From IMG/VR virus record IMGVR_UViG_3300021976_000030, positions 1-45,891 of that record: 45,891 nucleotides of DNA. One strand, written 5' to 3'. The notes beneath the pieces are model-generated. The model was not told the origin of the DNA and ran no database searches. It saw only the letters and a list, made by a program, of their open reading frames with translations. Of this stretch, positions 7 to 45,768 are shown piece after piece; position 1 is the first letter of the stretch, and each line of letters opens with the position of its first letter. Position numbers and translations under genes: made by a program. This DNA is from a virus (Duplodnaviria > Caudoviricetes).

Positions 7-46
<40 letters not shown>

Positions 47-262: not shown

Positions 263-291
263 TTGACATTAAGAACGAGCTATGAGATAAT
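263..291 (+). promoter_or_regulatory. sigma70-type promoter
   Basis: TTGACA (263-268), 17 nt, GATAAT (286-291) with TG extended -10, 80 nt upstream of ORF 372. Confidence 0.8.
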
Positions 292-371: not shown

Positions 372-821
372 ATGCCAAAGAAATCAGAACCGAAGAATGT
401 GGGTAGTTCAGCAATTAATGGTGTGGCTGTTGATTTGCTGGAACTTGCAGCTAAGACTAAGGATGCAGATAAGAATGAAACTGCATTTACCTATCAGTTT
501 CCTTCCTTCAAGTCTGAGGTTACTGTTGAGGATATGGTAAAGGCTCTTACCTATACCAATTCTAAGAAGGAAGTTATCAGCGGCGTTAGCGTCCTGCGCG
601 ATTATGTCAACACAGCGCTTAAGAATGAAAAGCGTAGTTCTAAGCTTGCTGAGATTAATGGCATCCTGAAGCTTAGGGAAGATCCTGAAGCTGCTATTAA
701 GGCAATGGTGGATCAAATGGTTCTGGCCTATGGTGTTCCGCGTGAAATGGCTGAGGCTAATGTGCGAGCGCTTATTGCACAAGGCTCAGTCGCTAAGGAA
801 GCTTCCAGTCCTGCGGCGTAG
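372..821 (+). CDS. hypothetical protein, putative immediate-early stand-alone gene
   Basis: 149-aa ORF with purine-rich RBS, its own promoter and terminator, and no TTA codons. Confidence 0.8.
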   Translation: MPKKSEPKNVGSSAINGVAVDLLELAAKTKDADKNETAFTYQFPSFKSEVTVEDMVKALTYTNSKKEVISGVSVLRDYVNTALKNEKRSSKLAEINGILKLREDPEAAIKAMVDQMVLAYGVPREMAEANVRALIAQGSVAKEASSPAA

Positions 822-840
822 ACTCTAACGAGTTTAATAA

Positions 841-879
841 ACCCTAGCTATCCGTATGTGGTAGCTAGGGTATTTTTTT
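841..879 (+). terminator. Rho-independent terminator
   Basis: ACCCTAGCTA / TAGCTAGGGT stem followed by a T run, just after the ORF 372 stop. Confidence 0.85.
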
Positions 880-975
880 GTCTATTATTTATTATCGATT
901 ATCGATTATCTATGAGCCTATACAATGCCCAACGTTTGATTATTATTTCAACTAGGGTAAGGACTAGGGAGGCAT

Positions 976-1006
976 AAAAAAAGAGCCTAGCAGGGATACT
1001 AGGCTC
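976..1006 (-). terminator. Rho-independent terminator (minus strand)
   Basis: GAGCCTAG / CTAGGCTC stem preceded by A7 on +, downstream of ORF 1032-1301(-). Confidence 0.8.
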
Positions 1007-1031
1007 ATATAGAGGCAAGCTGAGAGAATGC

Positions 1032-1301
1032 CTATCTAGTGAATGCTCCACACTTATGGTTAGTGCAAAGTCCATCATCATTTACGAATTGCTTGCAGTC
1101 CGAGCACCTGGGATACTTGCAGGAGAGTTTAGTTGTGCTCGTCTCTCGAATGGTGGCTGAGATAACGTATGAGTCTACAGGCAATGCAGCGCCTGAGTTT
1201 AGTATCTCCACCATAGTCTTAGAATCCTGATTAGTGTAAAACTTCATAGATACGATTGTCTTAGTGTAGGTATTCTTAAACATTGTACTTTTTCCTTTCA
1301 A
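1032..1301 (-). CDS. small protein with C-terminal Cys cluster (putative Zn-binding)
   Basis: CSDC...CTNHKC motif; part of a tightly packed minus-strand trio. Confidence 0.6.
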   Translation of the reverse strand: MKGKSTMFKNTYTKTIVSMKFYTNQDSKTMVEILNSGAALPVDSYVISATIRETSTTKLSCKYPRCSDCKQFVNDDGLCTNHKCGAFTR

Positions 1302-1527
1302 GCTTGATACCAGTGTGAAACTTAAGCATTAGCTCAGTAGCTATTCTGGCAGCGCCGAGGATTGATGTATCCGAGATATACTCATCACACTGACAGGATG
1401 AGTATGCTATCTCCTTATCGTTGTAATCTCTCAATTCTACTACGACATAATATTTCACAAAACCCCCATCATGCAAGCTATGGTGAACAGAGAGAACAGC
1501 AGGAGGAAACCTCCAACGAAGCTCCAA
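1276..1527 (-). CDS. hypothetical protein
   Basis: ORF track; packing with neighbours; true start may be internal. Confidence 0.55.
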   Translation of the reverse strand: MELRWRFPPAVLSVHHSLHDGGFVKYYVVVELRDYNDKEIAYSSCQCDEYISDTSILGAARIATELMLKFHTGIKLERKKYNV

Positions 1528-1534
1528 TCATCTT

Positions 1535-1786
1535 TCATTTTGATACCTCGGAAATTCTCACACTTACCAGTCCATTCATTCGCAGTGAATCAACGTAAGC
1601 CTGTGCAGCTTCCTTAGAATCGAAGCGTGTAGCACAGGATGAATGATTAGGCGTAAACTCAGGCCGAATCCATGATTTAACTGAGCGCCGTCCGTTCAGT
1701 GTCACTGTGTATTGTGCGATAAACTTCATATACAGCCTACCTTTCATAGCTACCATAATCAGTAGCCTTATCATTAGAGCATACAT
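1535..1786 (-). CDS. hypothetical protein
   Basis: ORF track; likely start at MKFIAQ after an AGGT-type RBS. Confidence 0.55.
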   Translation of the reverse strand: MYALMIRLLIMVAMKGRLYMKFIAQYTVTLNGRRSVKSWIRPEFTPNHSSCATRFDSKEAAQAYVDSLRMNGLVSVRISEVSK

Positions 1787-2040: not shown

Positions 2041-2070
2041 TTGACAGGCTAGTACAATGTATGGTACAAT
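2041..2070 (+). promoter_or_regulatory. sigma70-type promoter for packaging/structural operon
   Basis: TTGACA (2041-2046), 18 nt, TACAAT (2065-2070) with TG extended -10. Confidence 0.7.
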
Positions 2071-2198: not shown

Positions 2199-2750
2199 AT
2201 GTTAATAATTTCTGAAGAACAATTCTTAAAAGAACTATCTCAGTCTAACTCTAAGTCTATGACTATTGTCGAGGAACTTAATAAGGTTCCTGAAGTAGTT
2301 GAGATGGAGAATGGAACATATGATACCTTCCGCAAGCCTGCGGGTATACCTAACATTCCAGATGAGCTTAAGCCTATCATTGGTAGTCTAGCTAGTCTTT
2401 CTACTCATGAGGAAGTATCTGAAGCTTTTGGAGTATCTAAAGATACAGTAAGTAACTTAGCTAACGATAATCATAAGAACTCAGAAGTAAGTGAACGGAA
2501 AGTTAATATATTAAATGCAATAAAAGATAACATTCAATCTAAAATAGGTTCTTGTGTTGAGTTCTTAGAAATTTCCAAAGCTATGACTCATAAAGAACTA
2601 TTAGGAACTGCTGAAAGTCTTAGTCGAATTCATCGTAACATCAGTCCAAATGCAGCACCAGAGGTAAATCAAAATGCACAGTTTGTATTCTATGTTCCAG
2701 AGCGGCAGAATAAAGTGGAAGATTATACTATTATTGATGCTCCCGTCTAG
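2199..2750 (+). CDS. HTH protein, putative terminase small subunit
   Basis: HTH-like HEEVSEAFGVSKDTVSNL followed by a helical region; first gene of the operon containing TerL. Confidence 0.45.
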   Translation: MLIISEEQFLKELSQSNSKSMTIVEELNKVPEVVEMENGTYDTFRKPAGIPNIPDELKPIIGSLASLSTHEEVSEAFGVSKDTVSNLANDNHKNSEVSERKVNILNAIKDNIQSKIGSCVEFLEISKAMTHKELLGTAESLSRIHRNISPNAAPEVNQNAQFVFYVPERQNKVEDYTIIDAPV

Positions 2751-4984: not shown

Positions 4985-5203
4985 ATGTTAACTGTTGGAA
5001 AAATTACTAAGCTTGTGCGTGACCGTGGCTTTGGATTCTCTGAAGATGAAGCTGGGCAATTATACTTCTTTCATTATTCTTCTATTGACCCTAGGACTAG
5101 AGTTAAGTTTGAAGATTTAAATGAAGGAAACTCAATTCAGTTCATTGCAGAACCTAGTGAAAAAGGGCCACGAGCTAAGCCACGTTCTTTAAGCTTAGTC
5201 TAA
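4985..5203 (+). CDS. cold-shock domain protein
   Basis: RNP1 RGFGF, RNP2 FFHYS and C-terminal KGPRA; 72 aa. Confidence 0.9.
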   Translation: MLTVGKITKLVRDRGFGFSEDEAGQLYFFHYSSIDPRTRVKFEDLNEGNSIQFIAEPSEKGPRAKPRSLSLV

Positions 5204-7164: not shown

Positions 7165-7483
7165 GCATCCTAAGAAGATAGACTATTGGTATTTTGCTCA
7201 TACTGAGAAACTTCTTCATGGACAGATAGCATTATTAAGGCACGAACTAAGTGTAAGACAGTCCGAGCTATCCGAGCTAACTAAGCTAATTCATACTCCT
7301 GAGGAAGTTCATATTAAACCTGATAATGAGCGTGCGACAATGCCAGTAGGTAAGATGGCTAATCCCGCTAGGAAGTTAGCTGAGATGGAAGATATTGAGC
7401 GCCGTAGATATTGGGAAGATCAAATTAAGCTTAGAGAATCTATAAAAGAAACTGAAGGTAATATCATTGAGGCTGAGTCTTGA
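7016..7483 (+). CDS. hypothetical coiled-coil protein (true start probably ~7120-7160)
   Basis: ORF track; fills the gap between terL and the next gene. Confidence 0.55.
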   Translation: MIMLLKHLQRLVTKLLSIVKWKQLKQNYKERSQYDVVDLTPENPTIEHLEHPKKIDYWYFAHTEKLLHGQIALLRHELSVRQSELSELTKLIHTPEEVHIKPDNERATMPVGKMANPARKLAEMEDIERRRYWEDQIKLRESIKETEGNIIEAES

Positions 7484-7811: not shown

Positions 7812-10175
7812 ATGTTTCCACCTACTGAAGCTACTCAGGGTATTCCACAAGATATCCAGACTGAACCAGAGGCACCTACATTACCGCCTCCAATGAATCA
7901 GTCTGTTGATACTAAACCTGAGAGTGATGATGAAGGTGATGAAGAATATGTAGACCCTTTGGATGGAGAGGAAAGTCTACAAAAAGCAGTCATGGATATT
8001 CTTCATGACTTCGACCTTATTGAGGAGACTACTCGTAATTATAATATTAGAACTTATAAGAAGTGTGAGAATTACTGGCATCATATTCAGAATAACTATT
8101 GGTCTGAATATGCTGGTGATTGGAGAACTCCGGCGCAGTTCTTTGAACAGAATCCAGATCAGCCATTCTCGGATGTTGATTTAAAAATTACTAATATCTA
8201 TCGTGCACATGGTGAGTCTATTGTAGCAGCTCTATCTGTCAAGCCTCCATCTGTTAGGTTTTTTCCTAATGATGCTGATAGACCTGAGGATATTACGAGC
8301 GCTAAAGCTCACAGTAAAATTGGTAAGATGATTGAGCGTCAGAATAAGGCTAAGCTCCTTCTGATGCGAATGATTTATATCTTATACAATCAGGGATTCG
8401 TTGCAGTTCATAACTACTCTCATGAATCTGAAGAATATGGAGTAGTTCAGAAGCCTAAGTATGGGAAGAAGAAAGTTCATTACTCTAAAGCTCTATGTGC
8501 CGTATGTGGAGAAACTCTATCTGAAGAAGGTCCAAGTGATGAAGTTATTAAGGAACCTTCGGTAGTTCCACCTACTGTATGTCCAACTTGTGAGAATGAA
8601 GTTGTTCCATTATTTGAGAGCACTGAGGATGAAGTACGTTATCAAGATGGAACTATTAATAAGTCTAAGTGTAGACAGAAGTTAGTTCCCTATGGTCCTC
8701 TTAATGTTAAGGTTTCATCTTACGCTTATGATCAAAGAAGCGTGGGAATACTAGTTCTAGATTCTGAGCAAGCTTATGCTAAGGCTCAGGATATGTATCC
8801 TAATATTGCAGATAAGATTAGGCCAGGAACTTTAACTAATGATACTAGTGTAAGTGCTAGGACTCCTAATACTGTAGTAGATGCATATACTAAGAATAAC
8901 GTAACTGTTCGTCAATTCTGGTTACGCCCCTGGATGTTTAATGCATACACTAAATCAGGAGATCCACATGAAGATGCAATAGTACAGGCACTGAAGAAGA
9001 AGTTTCCCAATGGCGCTTGTATTCATGCTGTTAATGATTTGTATGCTGAATCTCAACCTGAATCATTAGATGCAGCTTGGAGTATTTCTTTCAATCCTAT
9101 GAGTCGTTATATCCACTCTGACCCCATTGGGTTAGGAATGTTGGATATTCAGGATATGAAGAATACTCTAGTTAATTTACAGGTTCAGTCAGTTGAATTT
9201 GGTATTCCTGAAACTTTCGTTGACTCAGAGATTTTAGACTTAGAAGCATATGCAAAAAATAGGGGAGGTCCAGGAATGACCTTTCCTGTTAAAGTTCCAA
9301 TTCCAGGTACTGCGATAGGTAATTACTTCTTCTCAAATAAGCAAGCTACGCTAACTGATGAAGCCGGTAGATTAGAGGATAGAGTTGATGCGTCTGGTCA
9401 ATTTATTTCTGGAGATTATCCTAGTATCTACGGTGGTCCTAATTCTGGAGATACTGCTGCTGAATATTCTATGTCCAGACAGCAAGCCCTTCAAAGACTT
9501 AGCACCACATGGACTATTCTCGGATTCTTATGGGCAGACGTTATCAAGCGCTCAGTTGAAGGATACATAAGTAATCTAAAAGAAGATGAATATTATGTAG
9601 AGAAGGAAGCTGAGAATTTTATTAATATCTGGATTAAGAAGTCAGAACTAGCTGGTAGTGTTGGAGAATGTTATCCTGAGGAAAGTGAGCAGTTTCCAAC
9701 ATCCTGGGCACAGCAACGTGAAGTAATGATGCAGTTAATTACTATGCAATCTCCCTTAATGGAAACTGTAATTGCTGACCCAAATAATAGAACTGAAATT
9801 GCTAAGTTACTTGGATTAGAGGCACTTTATATTCCTGGTGAACAAGATAGAAGGAAGCAGCTTGATGAAATCTCAGTCTTAGTTCAGGCTGAGCCAATTG
9901 ATACTGGTATAGTTAATCCTCAGACTGGACAAGCTGATTTACAATCTACAATTCAACCAGAGAAAATTGACGACCATAGAGTTCATATTGATACAGCTAA
10001 ACATTGGATGAATAGTGAAGTTGGTCAGTATTATAAAGAGAATAAACCAAGTCGTTACTTAAATGTTATGCTTCATATGGAAGCGCATGAAATGATGGAA
10101 CAGGCTATGATGATGTCTATGGGTCAAACAGGCCCAGGACAACCAGAACCTACAGCGGGGAGTGGAGTAAATTAA
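7812..10175 (+). CDS. portal protein (podovirus/P22-like) with CxxC...CxxC insertion
   Basis: Size and position after terL; NIYRAHGESIVAALS...P; DIQDMKNTLVN; C-terminal DDHRVHI and Q/M-rich tail. Confidence 0.85.
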   Translation: MFPPTEATQGIPQDIQTEPEAPTLPPPMNQSVDTKPESDDEGDEEYVDPLDGEESLQKAVMDILHDFDLIEETTRNYNIRTYKKCENYWHHIQNNYWSEYAGDWRTPAQFFEQNPDQPFSDVDLKITNIYRAHGESIVAALSVKPPSVRFFPNDADRPEDITSAKAHSKIGKMIERQNKAKLLLMRMIYILYNQGFVAVHNYSHESEEYGVVQKPKYGKKKVHYSKALCAVCGETLSEEGPSDEVIKEPSVVPPTVCPTCENEVVPLFESTEDEVRYQDGTINKSKCRQKLVPYGPLNVKVSSYAYDQRSVGILVLDSEQAYAKAQDMYPNIADKIRPGTLTNDTSVSARTPNTVVDAYTKNNVTVRQFWLRPWMFNAYTKSGDPHEDAIVQALKKKFPNGACIHAVNDLYAESQPESLDAAWSISFNPMSRYIHSDPIGLGMLDIQDMKNTLVNLQVQSVEFGIPETFVDSEILDLEAYAKNRGGPGMTFPVKVPIPGTAIGNYFFSNKQATLTDEAGRLEDRVDASGQFISGDYPSIYGGPNSGDTAAEYSMSRQQALQRLSTTWTILGFLWADVIKRSVEGYISNLKEDEYYVEKEAENFINIWIKKSELAGSVGECYPEESEQFPTSWAQQREVMMQLITMQSPLMETVIADPNNRTEIAKLLGLEALYIPGEQDRRKQLDEISVLVQAEPIDTGIVNPQTGQADLQSTIQPEKIDDHRVHIDTAKHWMNSEVGQYYKENKPSRYLNVMLHMEAHEMMEQAMMMSMGQTGPGQPEPTAGSGVN

Positions 10176-10179
10176 TCTT

Positions 10180-10599
10180 ATGAGAAAGTATATTAAACAC
10201 ATCACATGGATTCCATTAATTTTCGGGCTAGTCTTAATATCTTATGATACGACTAAAGCTCAAATTACTAAGAATCAACCTTGGGCTGCGCAGGTAACTC
10301 TAGCTGCGGGAGATACTACTAAAACTCTATTAGCTGCACCGGGAGCTGGTAGAACTACAGTAGTTACTAGTTTAGCTTGTACTGTAGGTTTAGCTGCTGC
10401 ACAAGTTGTGACAGTTGCAGGTGGAACTAGTACATATCTAGTTATTGGAGCTTCTGCACCATTGGCTACTTATTTTACACCTGATATGGTTTATGGTTTA
10501 GCTGCGCCAGTTAATACAGCCATTATCATTACTCCTGCGGCCGCTGGTCCTATTGTATTCTGTATTGCTGAAGGTTATTATACTACAACTGGTGTCTAA
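10180..10599 (+). CDS. signal-peptide-bearing beta-rich protein (possible virion accessory)
   Basis: Basic N-terminus, hydrophobic stretch, TKA-Q cleavage-like site; Ala/Thr/Val-rich body. Confidence 0.55.
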   Translation: MRKYIKHITWIPLIFGLVLISYDTTKAQITKNQPWAAQVTLAAGDTTKTLLAAPGAGRTTVVTSLACTVGLAAAQVVTVAGGTSTYLVIGASAPLATYFTPDMVYGLAAPVNTAIIITPAAAGPIVFCIAEGYYTTTGV

Positions 10600-10612
10600 T
10601 TAATTCTGGAGA

Positions 10613-11833
10613 ATGATAATGGCTGATGAACTTAAAGTTGAAATTAATCCTGATTTGAATGATGAGAAGTCTGACCTCGACTTATTGAATGATGATACTA
10701 AAATTCCTGAAAAGGAAGAAGAAGTAAAATTAGATGATAAGGAAGATATACTCGAAACTGAGGAAGAGGATGAAGATAAACTGGAAGTTGAGGAAGATAA
10801 TGAGGATGAAGAAACTGAAGAGGAAGAACTTCCAGAAAGTAAGTTAAGGCCATCTCTCAAAACTATGACGGATAAGTTTCCGGATCTTCCTAAGATTCTG
10901 AAAGCTTTTCCTCAGTTACGTGATGCATACTATCGTGAAGGTAAGTTTACTCAGATATTTCCTACAGTTGAAGATGCTACTCAGGCGAGTGAATTAGCTG
11001 ATACATTCCAGGAATTTAACGAACATTTTATTAATGGTAGTTCTAAGGAACTTTTAGCTGCTTTAAGCCAGAATAATCCTGATAGCTTAAAGAAGTTAGC
11101 TACTAATTTTCTACCTACTCTTAATGAACTGAACGCTGACTTATTCTACGATGCAATTATTCCTAGTATTAATAATGTAATCCGCAACCTTCACACAACT
11201 GGTGAGAAGGAAAAAGATAATAACATGATGGGAGCTGCTAAAATTCTTAGCAAGTTCTTACATGGAACATACGATATTCCAATTCAAGAAACTAAGAAAG
11301 ACCCTGAGATTGAGCGTGAGCGTAAGAAATTAGACGATGAGCGTAATACAGTTGAACGAGAGAAATATGATGAATTCTCAACAACAGTTCATTCTCGTGC
11401 AAATCGTTTAATGACTAAAGCTATTACAGATGGTTTAGACCCTGAAGGAAGTTTAACAGAGTTTACTAAATCTGCAATTATCGAAAAAGTAATTGATAAA
11501 ATTGGCGAGGAATTAGAGAAAGACCCACAGCATAATAAGTTAATGGAGAAGCTGTGGAAGGGCGCGCAGCAAACGAGATATAAGGGTGAATCAGCAGACA
11601 GATTATTAACCGCGTTCCTGTCACGCGCTAAGCGATTAATCCCTGAAATCCGAGCTAAGTTCAAAGCTGAAGCACTAGGTACAAGTACTAGAAAAGGTAA
11701 TGGTATCGCTAAGACTACTAAGAGGGATGCCACTACTGGAACTAAGACTAGGGAAGTTAATAGTTCAAAGATTCCAGCTAAGACTGATAGGAATTTTTGG
11801 AAGCAAAATTCAGACAGAGCATTATTAGATTAA
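10613..11833 (+). CDS. putative scaffolding protein
   Basis: Very acidic N-terminus, helical body, basic C-terminus; sits between portal and capsid. Confidence 0.65.
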   Translation: MIMADELKVEINPDLNDEKSDLDLLNDDTKIPEKEEEVKLDDKEDILETEEEDEDKLEVEEDNEDEETEEEELPESKLRPSLKTMTDKFPDLPKILKAFPQLRDAYYREGKFTQIFPTVEDATQASELADTFQEFNEHFINGSSKELLAALSQNNPDSLKKLATNFLPTLNELNADLFYDAIIPSINNVIRNLHTTGEKEKDNNMMGAAKILSKFLHGTYDIPIQETKKDPEIERERKKLDDERNTVEREKYDEFSTTVHSRANRLMTKAITDGLDPEGSLTEFTKSAIIEKVIDKIGEELEKDPQHNKLMEKLWKGAQQTRYKGESADRLLTAFLSRAKRLIPEIRAKFKAEALGTSTRKGNGIAKTTKRDATTGTKTREVNSSKIPAKTDRNFWKQNSDRALLD

Positions 11834-11837
11834 TTTT

Positions 11838-11933
11838 ATGGAATTATTATTAATCGGATTATTAGGATATGCATCTCCAGCGATAGGAATTGCATATGTT
11901 AAACTTTGTGAGAAATTGATTGGAAGGAAATAA
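11838..11933 (+). CDS. 31-aa hydrophobic leader peptide coupled to capsid gene
   Basis: MELLLIGLLGYASPAIGIAYVKLCEKLIGRK; stop overlaps capsid ATG (TAATG); fills the intergenic gap exactly. Confidence 0.5.
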   Translation: MELLLIGLLGYASPAIGIAYVKLCEKLIGRK

Positions 11934-13180
11934 TGTTATTAGAAGCACAAATTAGTGGAGCTGAACTTGAAGCAGTTAGGAAGAAGCTTCCACTATTACT
12001 CGAACGTGATGATACTTGGTTCTCTAATGTTGAGAAGAAAGATGTAGAGAAAGTATCGGCGCGAGATATGCGAATTCCACTGGAATTGCGTCCCGGTGGT
12101 AACTTTGGATATTTTGATCCTGATGGTGGAGACTTAGGAACGGGCGATGGTCCGACTATTTCTGCTGCAACTATTGGTACTGTTCACATGAAGTTAGGTG
12201 TTCAGTGGACTAAGAAAGCAGAATGGTCAACTGACGACCAGAGGAAAAGCATTGTAAGTACATTTAAGCATTTAGTTGCAACTGGAATGAAAGAATTTCG
12301 GCGGCAGCTTGATAGTCAGTGTTTAACTGGTGGTGATGGAGCTATTGGAACTATTAGTAACGTAGGAACTGCATTAGGTATTGATACCTATACATTAGGT
12401 TCTGATGGCTTCGGCGCTCGTTTATTACGTTTTGGACAATCCATTAACGTATATAATGCTGCTCTGAGTACTAATCGTACGCTTGCTAATGAACGTAAAA
12501 TTCTTTCTTACGACTTAGCTAACAAGCAGATTACTGTTAATGCAGTAACTGGTGCGATTGCAACTGATAGGATTGTTACTGGTGGACTTTCAGCTACTCC
12601 TGCTGTGGGTTTATTCGGTTTACCTTATCATCACTCTAATGCTTCTACTGGAACATGGTTAGGTTTTAACCGCGCAACTACACCAGAAATTCGAGCAAAT
12701 CGAGTTAATGCTGGTGGTGGTTTAGCGCTTCCTTTTGCACGTTTGGCAATCAATAAGATTGGCGATCGTGTTGGAATGGATACGCAGGTTCAGGTTGAAG
12801 CTTGGATGCATCCATGTCAAAAGCAGGCTTATGAACAGCTTGGTCAACTTGTCAGCGTTATTCAGAAGCAGCCAAAGGATGAGGCGCTTGATTTATTCTT
12901 TGGTGATAATATGCAGCTGGCTGGTGCTCCTATCCGCACACATTTTAGCTGGGATAAGACCCGTATTGATTTTGCTGCTAAGAATCTTTGGGGTCGTGCG
13001 GAAATGCATGAAGCTGACTTCTATGATGTTGGTGGGCGTAGGTATTTTGAATCTCGTGGTGCAAGTGGTGGTGTGGCTGCGAGCCAGATTTTCTATCTTA
13101 GCTCATCCTTTAACTTGTTCCACTCTAATCCAGCGGCAGCAAGCTATATTGATGGATTGACTGTTCCTGCTGGTTACTAA
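11933..13180 (+). CDS. major capsid protein
   Basis: 415 aa after scaffold; strong RBS; G/A-rich HK97-fold-like pattern ending ...SYIDGLTVPAGY. Confidence 0.8.
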   Translation: MLLEAQISGAELEAVRKKLPLLLERDDTWFSNVEKKDVEKVSARDMRIPLELRPGGNFGYFDPDGGDLGTGDGPTISAATIGTVHMKLGVQWTKKAEWSTDDQRKSIVSTFKHLVATGMKEFRRQLDSQCLTGGDGAIGTISNVGTALGIDTYTLGSDGFGARLLRFGQSINVYNAALSTNRTLANERKILSYDLANKQITVNAVTGAIATDRIVTGGLSATPAVGLFGLPYHHSNASTGTWLGFNRATTPEIRANRVNAGGGLALPFARLAINKIGDRVGMDTQVQVEAWMHPCQKQAYEQLGQLVSVIQKQPKDEALDLFFGDNMQLAGAPIRTHFSWDKTRIDFAAKNLWGRAEMHEADFYDVGGRRYFESRGASGGVAASQIFYLSSSFNLFHSNPAAASYIDGLTVPAGY

Positions 13181-13211
13181 GTTTTTATTAACTTAAGAGA
13201 GGAAGAATAAG

Positions 13212-13574
13212 ATGTTAAGGAAAGATAGTATTGCTGCGTTACAGGAAGATAATGTTACTGAAGCTGACTTTCGATTTCTCACTACAATTGGTGGTCAGCA
13301 ACAGTCTCTAGATGGTGGTGTTGTAGCATCATTAGCTGGAGTTTTACCTGCACCTCAGGCTTTTATGACTGTGGTTTCAGGTGCATTAGCTCTCACAGGT
13401 ATTACACTTCCATATCCTACGTTCGCGGGTATGATTTGTTTACTTCCTACTGGTATATTTACTTGGACGGCGGCAGGTAATATTGCAGTAGCTGGAACTG
13501 CTGTTGTGGGTAAGGCTCTTTATTTCACTTACCTTCCTTCAACTGGTAAGTGGTATCCTAGTTATCTCGCATAA
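13212..13574 (+). CDS. putative capsid decoration/structural protein
   Basis: Immediately after MCP; GAGG RBS; small beta-rich protein. Confidence 0.5.
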   Translation: MLRKDSIAALQEDNVTEADFRFLTTIGGQQQSLDGGVVASLAGVLPAPQAFMTVVSGALALTGITLPYPTFAGMICLLPTGIFTWTAAGNIAVAGTAVVGKALYFTYLPSTGKWYPSYLA

Positions 13575-13595
13575 TTGAACTAATGAAAGGAAAGG

Positions 13596-13907
13596 ATGGA
13601 ACTACACATACACATACATAACCCTGATGTAGAAGTTAAGATTGACAAAGTGATCAAAAAACTGGAGACTATAGTGAATAAAGTTGATGAATTGAAAGCG
13701 GAACTCACTGCAGCAAATGAAGTTACGAATGAAATTGCTGTGGATGTTCAGGATTTACTTAATAAGCTGGTTGTTGGTGGACTGACTGCTGCTGAAGCTG
13801 ATGAAGTTAAGGCACAGATTGTTACGCTTACAGCTCGTTTGCGTGCAGTTGCATCACAGCATAGTACGGAACCAGTGGACCCAAACGTCCCTGTCGTTGA
13901 AGGTTAA
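13596..13907 (+). CDS. coiled-coil protein
   Basis: Heptad pattern; AAGGA RBS. Confidence 0.65.
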   Translation: MELHIHIHNPDVEVKIDKVIKKLETIVNKVDELKAELTAANEVTNEIAVDVQDLLNKLVVGGLTAAEADEVKAQIVTLTARLRAVASQHSTEPVDPNVPVVEG

Positions 13908-13923
13908 TTAACTTTTATAGGAG

Positions 13924-14006
13924 ATTCTAACCCTAGCGAAATATTAAAAGTTCCAGTCTGACCAAAAGGACTAGATAGGGTTTAATAAAGTAGCTAGGGT
14001 TAGGAT
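13924..14006 (+). ncRNA. candidate structured intergenic RNA (long hairpin with loop-E-like internal loop)
   Basis: CTAACCCTAGC/GCTAGGGTTAG outer stem, GAAA/AAGTA internal loop, TATTAAA/TTTAATA, AGTC/GACT. Confidence 0.45.
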
Positions 14007-14013
14007 AATTAAA

Positions 14014-14559
14014 ATGCTATCAACTAATGAACTCTCTAACTATAACGATTCATTACTACTCAAGTATGGTAGGATATTTGATAGACCTAAGTATAGAATT
14101 ACATGGTCTACTGAAGCTTTTGAACAAAGATATGTGGAAGGTAAAGAATATATTGGAAATATCTATCTAAGGGATGTTAAGGCTATTAAGGAAATGCCTA
14201 AGTATCCTAGAGATAAAGATAGATATGTCCTAGAGATTTTAGTTGAGATTCCGGCGGCGCTCAAAGATGAGTTAGTGGGAGATAGAGGACTGACCTATGA
14301 GCCTCTCTACTTCTTTAAGAAGAAAGAACAATATATCCAACCTAACTGGTTATTAATTGATTGTATAGCTTGTTTCTCACATTTTCCAATTGTTGAAGCT
14401 GTTGATTCATTAGTGTCACAGTTTATTAAAGCTGATAGGAAAGAATATGAGGAATGCTTAGATATTATTAATGATGAATTACCTGATATGGCTATAGCTC
14501 TTAGGCGTGGACATGCTGCATTTATTGACAGCACTAAGAAATTTCACTTGATTAATTAG
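14014..14559 (+). CDS. hypothetical protein
   Basis: ORF track, 181 aa. Confidence 0.7.
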   Translation: MLSTNELSNYNDSLLLKYGRIFDRPKYRITWSTEAFEQRYVEGKEYIGNIYLRDVKAIKEMPKYPRDKDRYVLEILVEIPAALKDELVGDRGLTYEPLYFFKKKEQYIQPNWLLIDCIACFSHFPIVEAVDSLVSQFIKADRKEYEECLDIINDELPDMAIALRRGHAAFIDSTKKFHLIN

Positions 14560-14568
14560 GAGTATATT

Positions 14569-14790
14569 ATGAATGGTATTGGTTGGGCTATTAAACAGAT
14601 GCAACATGGTTTAAGGGTTTCTAGGTCTGGTTGGAATGGTAAGGGAATGTGGTTAGCACTACAAGTTCCAGATGTTAATTCCAAGATGACATTATCTTAT
14701 ATTTATATGTATACGGCGCAGGGAGATTTAGTGCCTTGGTTAGCTTCGCAAACAGATATTTTAGCTAATGATTGGGATGTGGTGAATTAG
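14569..14790 (+). CDS. DUF2829 / Tad2-family protein (candidate nucleotide-signal sponge)
   Basis: Family signature G.RV.R.GWNGKGMW...PWLASQTDILA.DW. Confidence 0.85.
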   Translation: MNGIGWAIKQMQHGLRVSRSGWNGKGMWLALQVPDVNSKMTLSYIYMYTAQGDLVPWLASQTDILANDWDVVN

Positions 14791-14791
14791 T

Positions 14792-15424
14792 ATGGAACCT
14801 TCAGTAACTATTGTATCGATTCTCCCATACGAAATTTATGACTCGAAGCCTAATCTTTACCCTGGGAACTTTACTATCCCTGCTGGTAATGCGGCAAAGC
14901 CGGGTTTATTGGAAATTGAGCGTTCTACATTTCATATTCCTATGGCTTTTGGCGCTCCTCCTATGCGAGCGCATTCTAGTCCATTTGAAGTAGCTACATC
15001 AGTAGTTAATGATTATGTCGGCGCATTACTTAGTGTTGGTCCTGATACTAAACCTGGAGTTTGGGTAGAAGATAAGACATTTAAGAATTCAGCTTTAGCT
15101 GCAGTTCAATTAGCTGAGAAGATTGCTGAAGTTCTGATTAAGCAGCAGAAGTGGTTCTTTAGCTTAGTTAATTTAGCTGACGCTGAATATAATAAGCACA
15201 AGAATGCAATGGCAATTTCAGACTTTCAGAAGATGGCGGCGCGAGAACTTAATCTTAAGGATAAGCCGTGGCTACTGGATATGTCTCAGCTTGCTATTAA
15301 TAACTGTCCAGCATGTTACGCAGCAATTAATGCTAACGCTATTATTTGTTCGTCTTGTAGGTATGTTATTAAACCGGAACTTTACGATTCCAAGAAATTT
15401 GCAGTCGAGACAAGGGCACAATAG
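14792..15424 (+). CDS. hypothetical protein with C-terminal zinc ribbon
   Basis: CPAC...CSSC near the C-terminus. Confidence 0.7.
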   Translation: MEPSVTIVSILPYEIYDSKPNLYPGNFTIPAGNAAKPGLLEIERSTFHIPMAFGAPPMRAHSSPFEVATSVVNDYVGALLSVGPDTKPGVWVEDKTFKNSALAAVQLAEKIAEVLIKQQKWFFSLVNLADAEYNKHKNAMAISDFQKMAARELNLKDKPWLLDMSQLAINNCPACYAAINANAIICSSCRYVIKPELYDSKKFAVETRAQ

Positions 15425-17281
15425 ATGGCTGGATTACTAGCTAGTGAGATAATGGATGAGGCGGCGTTATTATTAAATGACGCTAGTAGACTCACGTTTA
15501 CATACACAATCCAGATTCCCTGGTTAAAGCGTGCAATTAACCAGTTCACTGATGAACTAGCTGTTAATTCAATCAAGTTACTCAATAAGACTGGCGTTGT
15601 AGTATATCCAGTAGTGGGAGCTACTACGACTATTGCAATGCCACCTGATTGTTTAATTCCTACTAAGCTGGAGGAACGAGCATTAGGTAGTTCTGATGCA
15701 TGGATTCCTATGACTGAAGTAGGAAGTATCAGTGCTAATTCTAACATTGGTCAGAGTTCATTCTTAATTTGGGCATTTCAGGGAACTCTATTAAATTCAG
15801 TTCCAGTTATTGATGTTCCAACTATTACTGGATTGAAGGAAATTAGAGTTACCTATGAACGCTTTCTACCCTACTCTGGTATTACTAGTGCATCAGATTT
15901 TACCACTGCTCTCACAATTCAATCTAAAGGATTCTTAGCATCTAAAGTTGCTGAGTTTATTTCTCGCTTCGTCCTAGCTAATAAGCAACGAGCTGATGAA
16001 TTAAAGCCTGAGAGTGGTATGTGCTTGCATAAGATTGTGCAAGTATGGACTAGGAATAAACAGAATAAACCAGTAAGACATACTAGATTTAATGTTCAAA
16101 CTGATTTCATTCCAGCTACTCCAGTAAGTAGTGGTGGTTCTAGCATAGTTATTAATTCTAATAATATATTAGATTGGACTAATGTAAAGAATGCACCTTA
16201 TAATGCTAAGGGCGATGGATTAACTGATGATACTACAGCTATTATAGCAGCTTATAATGCTACTCCTACAGGTGGAACTCTTTATTTTCCTAAGGGAGTT
16301 TACATCATTACTGGATTAATATGTAATAAGACTATTGATATTAGGGGTGATGGTGCTTATTCAGTTATTCGTAATACTGGAGCTGGGAAAGATGCAATAT
16401 TTTTTGATGGATTAACTATTGGTTATATTATAGCTGCATCTGTTAGAGATATTTCAATTTGTGGTTCGGCTGGAACTAGAGATGGATTAAGGTTATCTCA
16501 AGTTCATCAATCAGTATTTGAGAATGTTAAGGTATGTGGAACTGGAGCTACTGGTTTTCATTTAATGGGTTGTCTATTAAACTCATTTATAGGTTGTTCA
16601 GCTTCTACTAATTTAACTAATTTTAGTGGACTACCTATAGCTGTAATGCAACGTGGTTGGCATTTAGATAGTCAGGTTGGTGGTATTGGAGATAGTAACG
16701 GTAATACATTTACAGCTTGTCATGCTGAAGGAATTACTACTGCACCAGGTATTGGATTTGATGTATATTTCGCATTCGGTAATTCTTTTATTTCATGTAT
16801 ATCTGAAAGTAATACTGTTGGATTAAATCTAGGTCAAGATATTGGAATTGAAGCAACTAGAAATTCGTTTGTAAGTATATATTTTGAAGCTAATGGAACG
16901 AATACTATTGGGAATAGAAATAATAATGCATTTATAGGTAGTTATGATTTAGTTGATTTTGTTAATTGGTTTGGTGATGTAACTGTACAGGACACATTAA
17001 ATTTAGGCGCTACTCCAGCTACTGGTGGAATGGTTAATTTAACTAACAATAAATATATTAGAGCTAGAGGAGTTGCTGGAGGTGGGGCTAATCTTATAGG
17101 AATGGATACTGGTAATGTAATTCTTATTGGTGATCCTAACTTTAGTTTAAGTTTAAATGGTCCCATAGGTTTTTATGGGGTTGCTCCAGTACTTAGACAA
17201 TTATTTCCAACTGGAACTGGTAAGACTGTAGATCAATTAATTACTGCACTTCAACTGTTAGGTTTATTAAGACAAGTATAA
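15425..17281 (+). CDS. head-tail adaptor-like domain fused to pectate-lyase-like beta-helix (tailspike)
   Basis: N-terminal ASEIMDEAALLLND adaptor-like start; NVKNAPYNAKGDGLTDDTTAI...LYFPKGVY beta-helix signature; G/N-rich rungs. Confidence 0.75.
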   Translation: MAGLLASEIMDEAALLLNDASRLTFTYTIQIPWLKRAINQFTDELAVNSIKLLNKTGVVVYPVVGATTTIAMPPDCLIPTKLEERALGSSDAWIPMTEVGSISANSNIGQSSFLIWAFQGTLLNSVPVIDVPTITGLKEIRVTYERFLPYSGITSASDFTTALTIQSKGFLASKVAEFISRFVLANKQRADELKPESGMCLHKIVQVWTRNKQNKPVRHTRFNVQTDFIPATPVSSGGSSIVINSNNILDWTNVKNAPYNAKGDGLTDDTTAIIAAYNATPTGGTLYFPKGVYIITGLICNKTIDIRGDGAYSVIRNTGAGKDAIFFDGLTIGYIIAASVRDISICGSAGTRDGLRLSQVHQSVFENVKVCGTGATGFHLMGCLLNSFIGCSASTNLTNFSGLPIAVMQRGWHLDSQVGGIGDSNGNTFTACHAEGITTAPGIGFDVYFAFGNSFISCISESNTVGLNLGQDIGIEATRNSFVSIYFEANGTNTIGNRNNNAFIGSYDLVDFVNWFGDVTVQDTLNLGATPATGGMVNLTNNKYIRARGVAGGGANLIGMDTGNVILIGDPNFSLSLNGPIGFYGVAPVLRQLFPTGTGKTVDQLITALQLLGLLRQV

Positions 17282-17293
17282 TAGGAGATTAAG

Positions 17294-17686
17294 ATGGACA
17301 CTTTTGATCCAAAGACAGGTTTGATTATTCCTCATAATGAACCTAAAAAGAATGAGCCTATTGTTGAAGCTCATATCATTCAACCTGCTAAGACTGTTGA
17401 TTTGATTGGGGGAGCATCTAATCCTTCAGTACCCACACATGGAACTGTTAAGGATGGTGACTTAGCTAATCAGGATGGGCAATCTATTACACTTCCTGAT
17501 GATGTTAAAAATCAATTACCTAGTGTAATTAAGGAAGATAGTGCTAACATGGTAGTTTATCGTGAGATGTTAGCTAAGGCTCATGATAGTCTTAATGGAG
17601 CACAGTTAGGTGATATTAATCCTGGTCATCCTTATTGGGGTCTTATGAATGCTGCTAGGCAGTATGCAAATGAGAGGAAACTGTAA
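17294..17686 (+). CDS. hypothetical protein
   Basis: ORF track; AGGAG RBS. Confidence 0.7.
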   Translation: MDTFDPKTGLIIPHNEPKKNEPIVEAHIIQPAKTVDLIGGASNPSVPTHGTVKDGDLANQDGQSITLPDDVKNQLPSVIKEDSANMVVYREMLAKAHDSLNGAQLGDINPGHPYWGLMNAARQYANERKL

Positions 17687-18159
17687 TGCCAATTCAAAAT
17701 ATGTTTGCTGCTCTTAAAGTTCAGGCTTTAGCTCAGTTAGCCAACTTTAATGCTGCAACTGTTGTAGTTTCTGGTGATGTATTAGTAGTGCGCCGTAGAT
17801 TTACTCTAGCAGAAGTTAATGCTGGAGCTGTATTACTTCCACCTATCTTTGGAATCAAGTATCGTTTAACTGATGCTAGGATGATTTCTATTGGTGGAGC
17901 TTTTACTACATCTACATTAGTTCGCATTACTGGAACTCAGGCGGCGGCAGTTGTAGCATTATTGGGAGTAGCTATTGCAGCTTTATCTCAATCAGCGGTT
18001 GTACGAGCTGGTGCAGCTAACGCTACAGTATTAGCTGATGGAGCATCATTTATTGAGTGTGATGTTCAGACTGGAATTAACGTAGATAAAACTGGTGGCG
18101 CTGGAACTGTAGCTACAGCAGTTGATGTGGAAGCTTCATTTGTATTAGTTGAGGGATAA
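17686..18159 (+). CDS. Ala/Val-rich structural protein
   Basis: TAATG overlaps on both sides; lies in the tail module. Confidence 0.6.
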   Translation: MPIQNMFAALKVQALAQLANFNAATVVVSGDVLVVRRRFTLAEVNAGAVLLPPIFGIKYRLTDARMISIGGAFTTSTLVRITGTQAAAVVALLGVAIAALSQSAVVRAGAANATVLADGASFIECDVQTGINVDKTGGAGTVATAVDVEASFVLVEG

Positions 18160-20060
18160 TGCCTTTAACCCTTAGGTCATCTCAATGTAGGGGATTTTTT
18201 GATAGGGGGACGCCTGACCAGTGTCCTCCTGGTTATTTATCCCAGTTCTACAATTTCATGGTTAGGAATGGTTTTATTATTCCTAGGCCCGGTATGGTTA
18301 CTCGCCCAGTTGGTAGAACAAAAGTTAATATTCAACATCTATCAATTTATAAACCATCACCCGTAGCTGGCATTGTTACTCCCGCATTAATAGGCCATCA
18401 GGGTGGTGGTCCTCCTGCTATATTTAATATGGATTTAGGTGGAGCAGGAACACTAATCTATAACTCGACGCAGAATTATCATTCATGGATTAACTTCTAT
18501 GGGCGTGGATACTTCTCATTACATGATACTAATGTAGGTAGTGCCACTGAAAATCTTCAAGTTTACGAGGGTGCAGCTACTACTAGGAATGCTGCGGGAT
18601 TAAAACCTGTATCAGCTATGCTTGGAGCTGCAGCAGTTGGTGGAAATTTAGGTGTTGGAACTTACTTAGTAGATGTAGTCTATGTAACTACCACAGGATT
18701 TATTACTAAACCATCTGGTAACGTCTTAGCTAAGAACTGTTTTGGGGGTTATAAAATTGACCTCACAGTAATTCCTATTGGTCCTGCGGGAACCTTTGGG
18801 CGCAAAATTATAATGACTAAGTCTATTCCACTTGGGACTTATACTGGTAATCCTAACGATTATGAATTTTTCTTTGCACCCAACGCTTTCATTCAAAATA
18901 ATGTCGCTACTACTTTTGCACTAAGTGAGTTTGATGGTAATTTAATTTCTAGTTCTGATTATTTATTCAACTTACTAGAGACTATTCCCTCGGGAGTTGG
19001 AGTTGGAGATTATAACTCTCGTCTCTTAGTGTATGGTGAGAATGCTAATCCCTCAATCATTAGAATTAGTGCCCCCGGCGATCCAGAAACTATTGATGCT
19101 ATATCTAACTTACTAATAGTTGACCCATCAGAATCTGATGGTCTTAAGAATAGCGTTACACTGCGAGGTAATCTATATTTATTTAAGTCCTATAGGATGT
19201 ATGTTACATCTGATAATGGTGGTAGTCCATCCACTTGGCAGGTAGATACATTTGATTCAGGTGTTGGAACTGAATGCTATGGAGTTTCTGCGGTACTAGA
19301 TGCCAAGGGAACACATATGAATCAGTATGTAATTGCATCTAGGAGTGGTCTAATCTTATTCGATGGTATACTTAGATTTCCTGAATTAACTTATAATGTT
19401 GAGAATACTTGGAGAGATATAGATCAGGATTTATTCGCACAAGTTGAACTGGTAATGAATCCAGTTAATAAGCATATCTACTGTATCATTCCTCGTAATG
19501 ATGGCTCTCGTACCTTATTGGTCGGAGATTACTCAGAGGGATTAGGATTTGAAACTATTAAATGGTCAATCTGGGAACATGCTAGTGGTCATTCCTTTGG
19601 TGATTTCTATTCTATCGTAACTAGTATTGAAACTGGTGTGCCAGTAATCTACGTTAGCAATACTACATTTGTTGGTTCATTAAATATAAATAATCCATCA
19701 GCGGTTGATTCTACATTTGGATTAGATACAGCATTTCCATGTAAAATGCAAAGTGCACCATTAGTATTTGGTGAAAATGAAATAGGTTATCAAGCTATTA
19801 CTTCAGTTAATCTAATGCAAGCTAATGGTGGACCCGGTGAAATCTCAGTAACTGGAATAAGTTTAAGTGATGTTCCTAGTTCAGTATTATTAGCTGCTAA
19901 TTTCTTTCCGTTTTTATCTATCGGTGGTAAGGCTCAAGGTAAATTTCTATATACTCCATTCTTTGATATGCTACCTGGTATATTAATTAATGCTATCAGT
20001 ACTAGTAAACCTAAGATAATGAAAGTAATTATTGATGGCTATCTAATGGGTGAACAGTGA
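18159..20060 (+). CDS. tail nozzle / DNA-stabilisation protein (P22 gp10 / T7 gp12-like)
   Basis: N-terminal NFMVRNGFIIPRPG; propeller-like YNSRLLVYG...IRIS..GDPE, LYLFK, GVGT. Confidence 0.7.
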   Translation: MPLTLRSSQCRGFFDRGTPDQCPPGYLSQFYNFMVRNGFIIPRPGMVTRPVGRTKVNIQHLSIYKPSPVAGIVTPALIGHQGGGPPAIFNMDLGGAGTLIYNSTQNYHSWINFYGRGYFSLHDTNVGSATENLQVYEGAATTRNAAGLKPVSAMLGAAAVGGNLGVGTYLVDVVYVTTTGFITKPSGNVLAKNCFGGYKIDLTVIPIGPAGTFGRKIIMTKSIPLGTYTGNPNDYEFFFAPNAFIQNNVATTFALSEFDGNLISSSDYLFNLLETIPSGVGVGDYNSRLLVYGENANPSIIRISAPGDPETIDAISNLLIVDPSESDGLKNSVTLRGNLYLFKSYRMYVTSDNGGSPSTWQVDTFDSGVGTECYGVSAVLDAKGTHMNQYVIASRSGLILFDGILRFPELTYNVENTWRDIDQDLFAQVELVMNPVNKHIYCIIPRNDGSRTLLVGDYSEGLGFETIKWSIWEHASGHSFGDFYSIVTSIETGVPVIYVSNTTFVGSLNINNPSAVDSTFGLDTAFPCKMQSAPLVFGENEIGYQAITSVNLMQANGGPGEISVTGISLSDVPSSVLLAANFFPFLSIGGKAQGKFLYTPFFDMLPGILINAISTSKPKIMKVIIDGYLMGEQ

Positions 20061-20905
20061 GTAGTAGAAATTATCCATCCATTTCAACACTAGTTAATGC
20101 TATATCTGGTGGTCTGTCTGATGGACAGGCTTCAGATTTAATGCATAAAATTAGTGATGATTTAGATATGGTCTTTACTCAGATTAATACTGGACCATTA
20201 CCTGCTGTAAGTGGAGCTAATTTATTACATATTAATCCAGTAAATATTGATTCACCGGGTGATAATCCTCCATTAGTTGAAAGTCAGGGTAAAGTAGCAT
20301 TCTTAAATGTTGCTAATATTTTTATTAAAAATCAAGAAATAGATTTAGACCTAGGTCAATTAATTCTTAAAATTACAACTACTCCAACTAAGTTTGGTAG
20401 AGTTCAAACAATAGCCGATGGTAATTTTTTATTTTCATCCAATCTTTCTTGGAGTGGTGCAGTATTTCAAACTGATGCTGGTAATGGTTCTGGTATAAAT
20501 TTTACTGATGAAATTGTTAGAATTAGACAACGTATAGCTGGAGTAGATTATACTCCAATTACTGTTGATGCAACGCGCAGAATTATACTAGGTCATCCAT
20601 TAAACATTAGTGGTGCAGCAGATGAAATACTATTAGCTAATAATAAAGGTATTAGAGCTGCTAATGCTGCCGCTAGTGGTGGACTTGAGATAGCTAGATT
20701 AGATGCTAATAATTTAGTTAATTTAGGTTCCCATACTAATGGAACTGGTGGAGATGGTAATATTTCTATTTCACGCTCAACTACAGCTAATATGCCTACC
20801 GCTGGAGCTACTAGAAATGGAATACTTATCATTAATAGTACAACTAATGAACTATGTTTTTATACTGGTAACCTTCGCTATAAATTAGTTGGAGTTGCAT
20901 TCTAA
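20057..20905 (+). CDS. tail fibre-like protein
   Basis: GPLPAVSGANL fibre-type motif, G/N/T-rich, C-terminal GILIINSTTNELCFY. Confidence 0.55.
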   Translation: MSSRNYPSISTLVNAISGGLSDGQASDLMHKISDDLDMVFTQINTGPLPAVSGANLLHINPVNIDSPGDNPPLVESQGKVAFLNVANIFIKNQEIDLDLGQLILKITTTPTKFGRVQTIADGNFLFSSNLSWSGAVFQTDAGNGSGINFTDEIVRIRQRIAGVDYTPITVDATRRIILGHPLNISGAADEILLANNKGIRAANAAASGGLEIARLDANNLVNLGSHTNGTGGDGNISISRSTTANMPTAGATRNGILIINSTTNELCFYTGNLRYKLVGVAF

Positions 20906-21099
20906 TGTTTAAAGCTAGAATTATTAAGTTATCAATAAGTGCTCATATTATTTATGAAGATAATGATAACGTACTAGGTGAGACTAAGACCGAACCAATT
21001 GATATTTATCGAGGAACGGATATTAATTATGAACTTATTGAGAAAATTGAACAACTTGCACTTCAGGAATTTGCAAGTGGGAGACTTACAAAGGGTTGA
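20905..21099 (+). CDS. small hypothetical protein (possible fibre chaperone)
   Basis: TAATG overlap with the fibre gene. Confidence 0.5.
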   Translation: MFKARIIKLSISAHIIYEDNDNVLGETKTEPIDIYRGTDINYELIEKIEQLALQEFASGRLTKG

Positions 21100-21442
21100 T
21101 GAGATTTACAGAACGCATTATGAGAATGAATTTTGCCTCCCGTCTCTTCATCACACTATTGGGAGTGGCATCATTAGCAATGGTGATGTTATTACTGCTT
21201 TTGGAATGGTCAGATTATATCCGGAAGCTATCATCATAATTGATAAGTCATTAGATTTACAGACTAAAGTTAATTCATTGGAATTATTATATGAACAAGC
21301 AGTTAAGGTTTGTAAGCATAATAATTTTAGTGAGTTAAATGCTCATACTATTGATTCTAAATATAGTAACTTATTAACTAAAAGATTAGGATTCAAGGCC
21401 ATTAAAGGAAACTTATTACAAGTAGGTATTAAAGATGGGTAA
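20978..21442 (+). CDS. GNAT-fold-like protein preceding ejection genes
   Basis: FRNLQVGDLQRV N-terminus and KRLGFK C-terminus typical of GNAT folds; position like T7 gp13; likely start MNLLRK. Confidence 0.55.
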   Translation: MRLRPNQLIFIEERILIMNLLRKLNNLHFRNLQVGDLQRVDEIYRTHYENEFCLPSLHHTIGSGIISNGDVITAFGMVRLYPEAIIIIDKSLDLQTKVNSLELLYEQAVKVCKHNNFSELNAHTIDSKYSNLLTKRLGFKAIKGNLLQVGIKDG

Positions 21443-28102: not shown

Positions 28103-28187
28103 TGGTGCCCCTAACTGGACTCGAACCAGTATGCCTTACGGCGCAAGATTTTAAGTCTCGTGTGTATGCCAATTCCACCATAGGGGC
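28103..28187 (-). tRNA. trnL: tRNA-Leu (anticodon UAA)
   Basis: Acceptor GCCCCTA/TAGGGGC + A-CCA, D-loop GG, anticodon arm CGAGA-CTTAAAA-TCTTG, long variable arm, TTCGAG T-loop; 85 nt. Confidence 0.95.
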
Positions 28188-35393: not shown

Positions 35394-35801
35394 CTACGCA
35401 TTAGCACCCATCGTAGCTTCATAAGATGCAACACTCATGAAACCATTAGGTGTATTGTAAATCTTCTTATCGTTGGGATTCTCCTTAGGTTCCACAAAAA
35501 TCATGAGTTCCTTATCAGTGAATGCATCAGTATCAAATGCTCCACCATCTTCACCAACTTCTGCGCCACATGCTTCTGCAAATCCCTTAAACGGTCCAAG
35601 GAATTTCTCAGAGAATGAGCAACGCACCGGAACATCCTTTTCAGAACCTTCAATAATCTTACAATAGAACACATAGTTAGTGCTCTGGTCCTTCTTAGAT
35701 GCTTCCACTTTAGGTTCCTTGACAACACACTTATACCAGTCGGCCTTTTCGACCAACTTTGTTTGCATAATGTCGTCACGGTTCAATCGGATAATAGCCA
35801 T
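35394..35801 (-). CDS. single-stranded DNA-binding protein (DUF669-like)
   Basis: WY.C.V......SKK...NY...KIIEG..K OB-fold pattern; near the AAA_24 ATPase. Confidence 0.65.
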   Translation of the reverse strand: MAIIRLNRDDIMQTKLVEKADWYKCVVKEPKVEASKKDQSTNYVFYCKIIEGSEKDVPVRCSFSEKFLGPFKGFAEACGAEVGEDGGAFDTDAFTDKELMIFVEPKENPNDKKIYNTPNGFMSVASYEATMGANA

Positions 35802-45706: not shown

Positions 45707-45768
45707 ATAGCAGGCTCAGAGTGCCCTAGAGGCAGTCCCGAGCAGGCTAGGACAGGGGTCAGTCGGCC

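Follow-up and report, generated by a model that had tools for sequence, protein, structure and literature searches.

The window, which is the whole 45,891-nucleotide stretch of DNA analysed here, is a tailed phage of 45.9 kb and 37% GC that is apparently complete, its contig being broken at a poly(T) tract. The same sequence is present in metagenome runs from soil, possibly the phage's source, and no RNA dataset containing it was found. A structural arm on the plus strand (2199-26342) holds terminase, capsid and tail genes, and a replication arm on the minus strand (45706-26326) holds genes for a SNF2 helicase, an exonuclease, Sak4, a UDG-fused polymerase A, a primase-like protein and MazG, together with a tRNA. 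The island that separates the starts of the two arms contains a block of genes in which no leucine codon is TTA. Comparison with phage records found no cultured relative: none of the 50,697 records matched the capsid or a portal-sized protein, and the terminase and polymerase matched at about 30% only. The principal features are as follows.

263..291, plus strand: sigma70-like promoter of the leader gene (TTGACA, 17 nt, GATAAT, extended TG), 11/12 consensus
372..821, plus strand: conserved leader gene, 149 aa, probably early and highly expressed
841..871, plus strand: intrinsic terminator-like hairpin at the end of the leader transcript
2041..2070, plus strand: sigma70-like promoter heading the structural arm, 11/12 consensus
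2199..2750, plus strand: putative small terminase, first gene of the structural arm, labelled from position only and with no family match found; TTA 6/13
11933..13180, plus strand: major capsid protein (phrog_14242)
28103..28187, minus strand: tRNA-Leu(UAA) with encoded CCA and a cloverleaf fold, inside the replication arm
35394..35801, minus strand: SSB-like gene of a DUF669-related family, with a putative SSB role; TTA 0/4

The tRNA is flanked by genes for a dATP/dGTP diphosphohydrolase domain protein and MazG (26550-27476 and 28196-28747), and the UDG-fused polymerase A (30668-33175) lies nearby; this set could be a sign of nucleotide-pool control or of modified DNA. The structural arm includes a Tad2-like anti-Thoeris domain (14569-14790), and a cold-shock domain gene (4985-5203) stands ahead of the terminase. 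A perfect 22-nt inverted pair (16308-16329 and 20222-20243) lies in the tail-region genes with 3.9 kb between its halves, and could be an inversion site or the relic of a shared domain.

A sequence-only reading of the window had counted about 30 leucine codons and no TTA in four ORFs between 372 and 1786. The recount confirms this, with 30 leucine codons and 0 TTA in the ORFs as given, and the block remains TTA-free (0/28) once starts are corrected and an overlooked 27-aa ORF is added. Elsewhere in the window, TTA is the commonest leucine codon, at 528 of 1150 (0.46) in the 72 other ORFs. The binomial test that the reading had proposed gives P = 1e-8 for the ORFs as given and 3e-8 for the refined block, and P = 4e-5 once conditioned on non-leucine GC3; a run of 29 TTA-free leucine codons was reached in none of 20,000 permutations. 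GC3 is generally raised in the block (0.40 vs 0.23). In-frame TTA occurs 0 times in its 378 codons vs 3.97 per 100 codons elsewhere, and out-of-frame TTA is as frequent in the block as in the rest (4.5 vs 4.45 and 1.32 vs 1.25 per 100 codons). Because TTA is lost in frame only, local base composition is not the explanation, and the small ORFs are supported as real genes.

The same reading had contrasted the block with the capsid gene and other late genes, and had found a single tRNA. The capsid figure stands (12 TTA among the first 22 leucine codons, 17/38 over the whole gene), and the only tRNA found in the window is indeed the minus-strand tRNA-Leu(UAA). TTA is abundant in late genes, as claimed, but it is abundant in replication genes too. 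With gene classes assigned from promoter, strand and function, its share rises from 0/28 in the island through 133/344 in the replication arm to 315/611 in the structural arm (P = 1.5e-4), which makes a temporal gradient plausible.

The remainder of the block is a cluster of small minus-strand genes.

983..1006, minus strand: intrinsic terminator-like hairpin at the end of the cluster
1032..1283, minus strand: 83-aa ORF with a C-terminal Cys/His cluster, corrected start; TTA 0/4
1276..1458, minus strand: 60-aa ORF, corrected GTG start; TTA 0/5
1455..1538, minus strand: 27-aa hydrophobic ORF, overlooked in the sequence-only reading; TTA 0/5
1535..1729, minus strand: 64-aa ORF, corrected start; TTA 0/3

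The 27-aa ORF is coupled by overlapping start and stop codons, and no homologue of the 60-aa ORF was found. Together the four genes shun TTA alone (0/17, expected 7.7) and use ATA (4/13) and AGA (4/12). Their best promoter matches reach just 9/12, and the case for early timing is weaker than for 372-821. Small genes in the island differ from relative to relative, and by the counts of a home-made caller that is error-prone on short ORFs they are TTA-poor without being TTA-free, at 14/77 in relatives with the tRNA and 33/141 in those without. The complete absence seen in the window is therefore not family-wide.

Relatives were drawn from IMG/VR, where 515 capsid matches to this family were found. 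The comparison comprises the window and 31 relatives, 32 genomes in all, from capsid-matched loci: a first set (G001-G019) of long contigs among 80 loci listed, one of them 81% complete, and a hold-out set (G020-G031) of 12 genomes at least 93% complete from 80 further loci listed plus 7, for which predictions were written before the genomes were analysed. Gene calling used a synonym-blind script, which is error-prone on short ORFs. tRNA-Leu(UAA) is present in 15 of the 32 genomes, window included, and in just 2 of the 12 hold-out genomes. Neither a profile search nor intron-aware ARAGORN revealed a missed copy in the other 17, some of whose linear records may be incomplete. On a capsid-plus-terminase tree from a quick search, presence and absence require 8 changes, at least 7 of them forced by supported branches, so that this single tRNA has apparently been gained or lost repeatedly within the family. 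All 15 leucine tRNAs keep an ordinary-looking anticodon loop, judged without a host tRNA as reference, and no promoter motif precedes the window's copy within 110 nt. G016 carries a second tRNA (7345-7420) with a 6-nt anticodon loop that resembles tRNA-Lys(UUU) one T short, a candidate pseudogene or assembly slip.

The leader gene shuns TTA (0/11), ATA (0/6), AGA (0/5) and AAA (1/16), and CTA and GTA as well. It has 34 close homologues besides itself, at 58-76% identity; three intact ones on metagenome contigs have TTA counts of 0/10, 0/11 and 0/10, and a fourth is frameshifted (L085, 312-634). In 23 of the 32 genomes, an iterative, codon-blind profile locates a remote homologue close to the putative small terminase, with TTA at 6/219, or at 11/237 (expected 68) if one off-position match is counted. 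A codon-blind rule based on position and promoter picks a gene in 22 of the 32 genomes, and these picks contain TTA at 2/97 (expected 40) in genomes with the tRNA and at 4/100 (expected 20) in those without. The family is fast-diverging (104-210 aa, 12-24% identity between distant members), with beta strands, a long helix and a helix pair; it has a promoter and a terminator of its own, occurs in either orientation and keeps its position beside one landmark. A promoter motif lies within 300 nt upstream of 20 of the 23 leader homologues, vs 138 of 1773 genes overall. Promoter-like sites across the window number 10, with 9.7 expected by chance, so the promoter case rests on conservation, and 372-821 is probably expressed early from its conserved promoter.

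The leader protein is a candidate host-takeover protein. Sequence searches of PHROG, Pfam and PDB give it nothing above cut-off, and IMG/VR scans with 372-821 or its close alignment gave no match, as did a scan with the polymerase. Its structure model (pLDDT 79, pTM 0.52) has no match in BFVD at E<=0.001 and matches viral clusters at 0.89 in the Atlas. Against PDB representatives, the best alignment (Z 6.7) covers 46 helical residues in a common arrangement and indicates no clear fold.

The SSB-like family behaves as the leader family does, with TTA at 11/223 (expected 65): 5/110 (expected 43) with the tRNA and 6/113 (expected 22) without. A DUF669 match was found in 5 of the 8 members scanned, 2 of them above cut-off, and none in the window's own copy. 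Leader and SSB-like genes prefer CTG, CCG, TCG, CGC, ATC and AAG, a set that fits a GC-rich host and would point to one. Four relatives are themselves 53-57% GC, and hosts may differ among relatives.

Capsid genes follow the tRNA. The window's capsid gene shuns AGA (0/24), ATA (0/21) and CTA (1/38) but not TTA, which stands at the genome average (O/E 0.91). Across the 15 tRNA-bearing genomes, capsid TTA is 150/421 (expected 164) and ATA, AGA and CAA are avoided; across the 17 tRNA-less genomes, capsid TTA is 35/508 (expected 98). The capsid is optimised in its other codons (O/E 0.16 for ATA, 0.26 for AGA, 0.31 for CAA). At matched GC of 0.40-0.46, capsid TTA is 41/193 in 7 tRNA-bearing genomes vs 12/322 in 11 tRNA-less ones (P = 0.004; this and the other P values take related genomes as independent). 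Capsid O/E for TTA exceeds that for ATA, AGA and CAA combined, control codons picked after codon counts were known, in 14 of 15 tRNA-bearing vs 2 of 13 informative tRNA-less genomes, informative meaning an expected capsid TTA count of at least 2.5, which drops four high-GC genomes. Hand-picked neighbour contrasts run in the same direction in 7 of 8 cases, one of them marginal, with G020 unpaired. No capsid-like switch is seen in the terminase, with 210 TTA (expected 216) with the tRNA and 118 (expected 132) without, or in the portal and leader genes. At the level of whole genomes, TTA share in the first 20 genomes follows GC3 (Spearman -0.88), with no significant further contribution from tRNA presence (0.049, s.e. 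0.035).

The hold-out prediction held in 5 of 8 informative genomes. The misses are G020, which has the tRNA and a capsid TTA count of 1/31, and two tRNA-less genomes, G026 (11/27) and G023 (4/30). In the first set the exception is G006 (93% complete), which is tRNA-less with capsid TTA at 12/34 and ATA at 4/28 and could have a missing tRNA cluster or weak optimisation. In G020 the replication arm upstream of the tRNA (about 9000-22200) is also TTA-poor (26/254), as if the tRNA had been gained recently.

A second tRNA repeats the capsid pattern for another codon. Four genomes (G007, G011, G014 and G015), amounting to about three lineages since two are near-identical, encode a CAU tRNA with G3-C70, C4-G69 and C5-G68, which are described as marks of tRNA-Ile2 (PMC1635315); ARAGORN labels these tRNAs Met(CAU), a call that the acceptor-stem marks counter. 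Capsid ATA is 21/91 in these four genomes vs 9/679 in the other 28, and their SSB-like and leader genes have ATA at 0/36 and 0/32. On these counts, capsid genes mostly use TTA or ATA only with the matching phage tRNA.

The codon pattern is frame-specific and conserved, and it covaries with the tRNA across relatives. It is probably explained by graded codon compensation with an early/late split, in which the leader block precedes the build-up of the tRNA and the tRNA makes UUA a good codon late in infection. AT-biased mutation pressure would drive leucine codons to TTA, and a host that is likely GC-rich would read UUA slowly yet unaided. Selection would then strip TTA from genes translated before phage tRNA-Leu(UAA) has accumulated; late in infection the phage tRNA would top up a scarce host tRNA and lift selection against TTA, so that the capsid could use TTA freely and still avoid the remaining rare codons that end in A. 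Such selection, on the efficiency of translation, would act by degrees, with no on/off gate. We infer here the timing of expression, the expression and charging of the tRNA, and the codon usage of the host. The sequence-only reading had proposed that the block is translated first, with the tRNA pool of a probably GC-rich host. The family comparison of leader, SSB-like and capsid genes supports a block suited to a pool that reads UUA poorly, and it links the phage tRNA to TTA in the capsid, the late gene with the highest expression; the reading's idea of timing is partly right. Its further proposal, that most of the phage programme depends on the phage tRNA in the manner of bldA, is not supported, given the TTA content of tRNA-less relatives.

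That proposal amounts to a selected timer, in which TTA would be actively kept in later genes to hold them until the phage tRNA accumulates. Such a timer would suit the larger excess of TTA in structural over replication genes when the tRNA is present (log2 0.58 vs 0.20, P = 0.0017), a difference that other codons do not show, as well as the TTA-specific avoidance in the window's small minus-strand genes and the place of the tRNA inside the replication arm without a promoter motif of its own. We nonetheless regard it as unlikely. In 13 TTA-sufficient genomes among the 17 without the tRNA, 308 of 343 genes of at least 150 aa contain TTA, a comparison that assumes similar hosts. TTA under bldA-type control typically lies near gene starts; in the window it is not 5'-enriched (30/74 within 30 codons of the start vs 362/748 beyond), and in the tRNA-bearing set its 5' share is 0.38 vs 0.41 later. 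In the capsid, TTA is level with the genome average and does not exceed it, which is what relaxed selection would give, and in replication-arm genes transcribed ahead of the tRNA its share is 33-42%. The rise in TTA downstream of the tRNA (12/15) is unspecific, since a polymerase taken as the landmark yields a similar gradient whether or not the tRNA is present (P = 0.57). A related version, a one-tRNA clock in which the tRNA is transcribed as part of the replication arm and TTA, kept high in structural genes by selection, throttles virion synthesis until the tRNA builds, with the Ile2 tRNA as a second, interchangeable key in some lineages, seems to us just as doubtful.

Expression level alone could make the leader and SSB-like genes the most host-optimised and leave the link to the tRNA as a by-product of genome AT content. 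These genes do shun many A-ending codons and not TTA alone, and the genome-level dependence on GC3 reported above agrees; yet an optimised capsid keeps TTA where the tRNA is present, at matched GC too, and capsid ATA likewise follows the CAU tRNA, a codon-for-codon match that largely refutes this account and leaves it quite improbable. It is very improbable that the phage tRNA chiefly replaces host tRNA destroyed in infection, through genome degradation or anticodon nucleases, with TTA use secondary. Replacement would also predict late genes that match the phage tRNA, but one or two tRNAs cannot refill a pool, the carried tRNAs read exactly the codons shunned by early and highly expressed genes (UUA and AUA), and the ordinary-looking anticodon loops of all 15 leucine tRNAs speak against it. 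The sequence-only reading had named local GC content and recent gene acquisition among the things that would overturn it; the matching rival is that composition, or a recent transfer of the block from a donor richer in GC, explains the missing TTA. Two island spacers, 41-371 (GC 0.45) and 45707-45880 (GC 0.56), are GC-richer than other spacers (0.30-0.38), and the small genes vary between relatives; set against this are the normal out-of-frame TTA, the P value that persists after GC3 conditioning, and the age of the leader gene, whose highly diverged members are TTA-poor throughout. Composition and acquisition are thus refuted for 372-821 and barely credible for the block, though either may hold for single small ORFs.

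T4 codon classes were reportedly described by Cowe and Sharp in 1991 and by Kunisawa in 1992. Codon compensation by phage tRNAs is described for T4 and the cyanomyoviruses Syn9, S-RSM4 and S-PM2 (PMC3152331, PMC4810235), and T4 tRNA mutants still replicate (PMC4810235). The present phages share with these an AT-rich genome and a tRNA-Leu(UAA), whose anticodon is in the T4 list and among the six commonest in cyanomyoviruses according to those sources, and as in T4 the tRNA would be helpful, not essential. An intact phage tRNA is present, its cognate codon is abundant in the genome, and capsid codon use covaries with it, with exceptions in G020, G023 and G026. Unlike T4 and the cyanomyoviruses, with their 6-23 tRNAs, the window is a 46-kb phage with one tRNA that some relatives have and others lack, which allows the effect to be followed one codon at a time within a single gene.

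In Vibrio phage 2.275.O and Shigella phage Sf14, early genes match the host pool and late structural genes match the phage tRNAs; replacement of destroyed host tRNA is described for 2.275.O and proposed for Sf14 (PMC12482277), and it is also proposed for mycobacteriophages (PMC10264068). Codon use by gene class shifts toward the phage tRNA here as well, with timing taken from promoter, strand and function; unlike in those phages, which have many tRNAs and are explained by loss of the host pool, one or two tRNAs target single rare codons. Under bldA control in Streptomyces, TTA is very rare and the sole tRNA is host-encoded and limiting (PMC10732093), and a UUA codon is noted in the terminase of phage Hau3 (PMC2000904). 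The codon and anticodon are the same here and gene classes are likewise divided by TTA content, but TTA is the commonest leucine codon and occurs in 25 of 26 large window genes, far from bldA-type rarity, the phage itself encodes the tRNA, and relatives manage in its absence.

Why phages carry tRNAs has been called unsettled after 50 years (PMC10264068, PMC12482277). Tests have mostly set a single phage against its host or relied on many-tRNA phages. Codon compensation and the shift from early host-like to late phage-like codon use are already in print; the one-tRNA form with repeated gain or loss is what occurs here, and the main texts of the open literature yielded no report of capsid codon use that changes as related phages acquire or lose one tRNA. 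A capsid that follows two different tRNAs codon by codon, with early genes that do not, provides a clean comparative test. This family-scale test favours late-stage codon compensation and is scalable across the 515 capsid matches. TTA avoidance also offers a means to flag early genes in an unannotated family, including the promoter-proximal leader protein.

No host was identified by comparisons of the capsid, portal, terminase, polymerase, tRNA, lysozyme and cold-shock genes. The tRNA's best plasmid matches are about 80% identical and of mixed taxa, and the lysozyme, whose gene is located in the replication arm (40564-41031), is 46% identical to those of Acinetobacter T4-like phages. The capsid profile hit three contigs in GTDB genomes, all in unrelated MAGs (Nitrosotalea, Bacteroidetes and Pacearchaeota) and taken as misbinned.

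The sequence-only reading had also placed the first-injected genome end near 1800-2200. Contigs from two runs, a possible source, continue through 1800-2200 without a break and end close to the poly(T) tract, which speaks neither for nor against a terminus there; no terminal repeat was found, and the position of relatives' contig ends relative to the leader gene varies. In 13 of the 32 genomes, the contig ends upstream of the putative small terminase at a distance of no more than 4 kb, and in 7 of these 13 it does so at a poly(A/T) tract. A genome terminus somewhere in the island is plausible, and 1800-2200 would be one candidate position for it.

9..39, strand unspecified: 31-nt poly(dT) tract at the contig break

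This tract and the leader gene are separated by a few hundred nucleotides, and divergent sigma70-like promoters (45849, minus strand; 263, plus strand) bracket the tract. An A/T run of at least 9 nt occurs within 1.5 kb of the leader homologue in 16 of 23 genomes. Poly(dA:dT) tracts are also seen in G002, G003, G004, G006, G008, G011, G012, G031 and others, where they are internal in circular assemblies, and are possibly an origin, entry or packaging signal.
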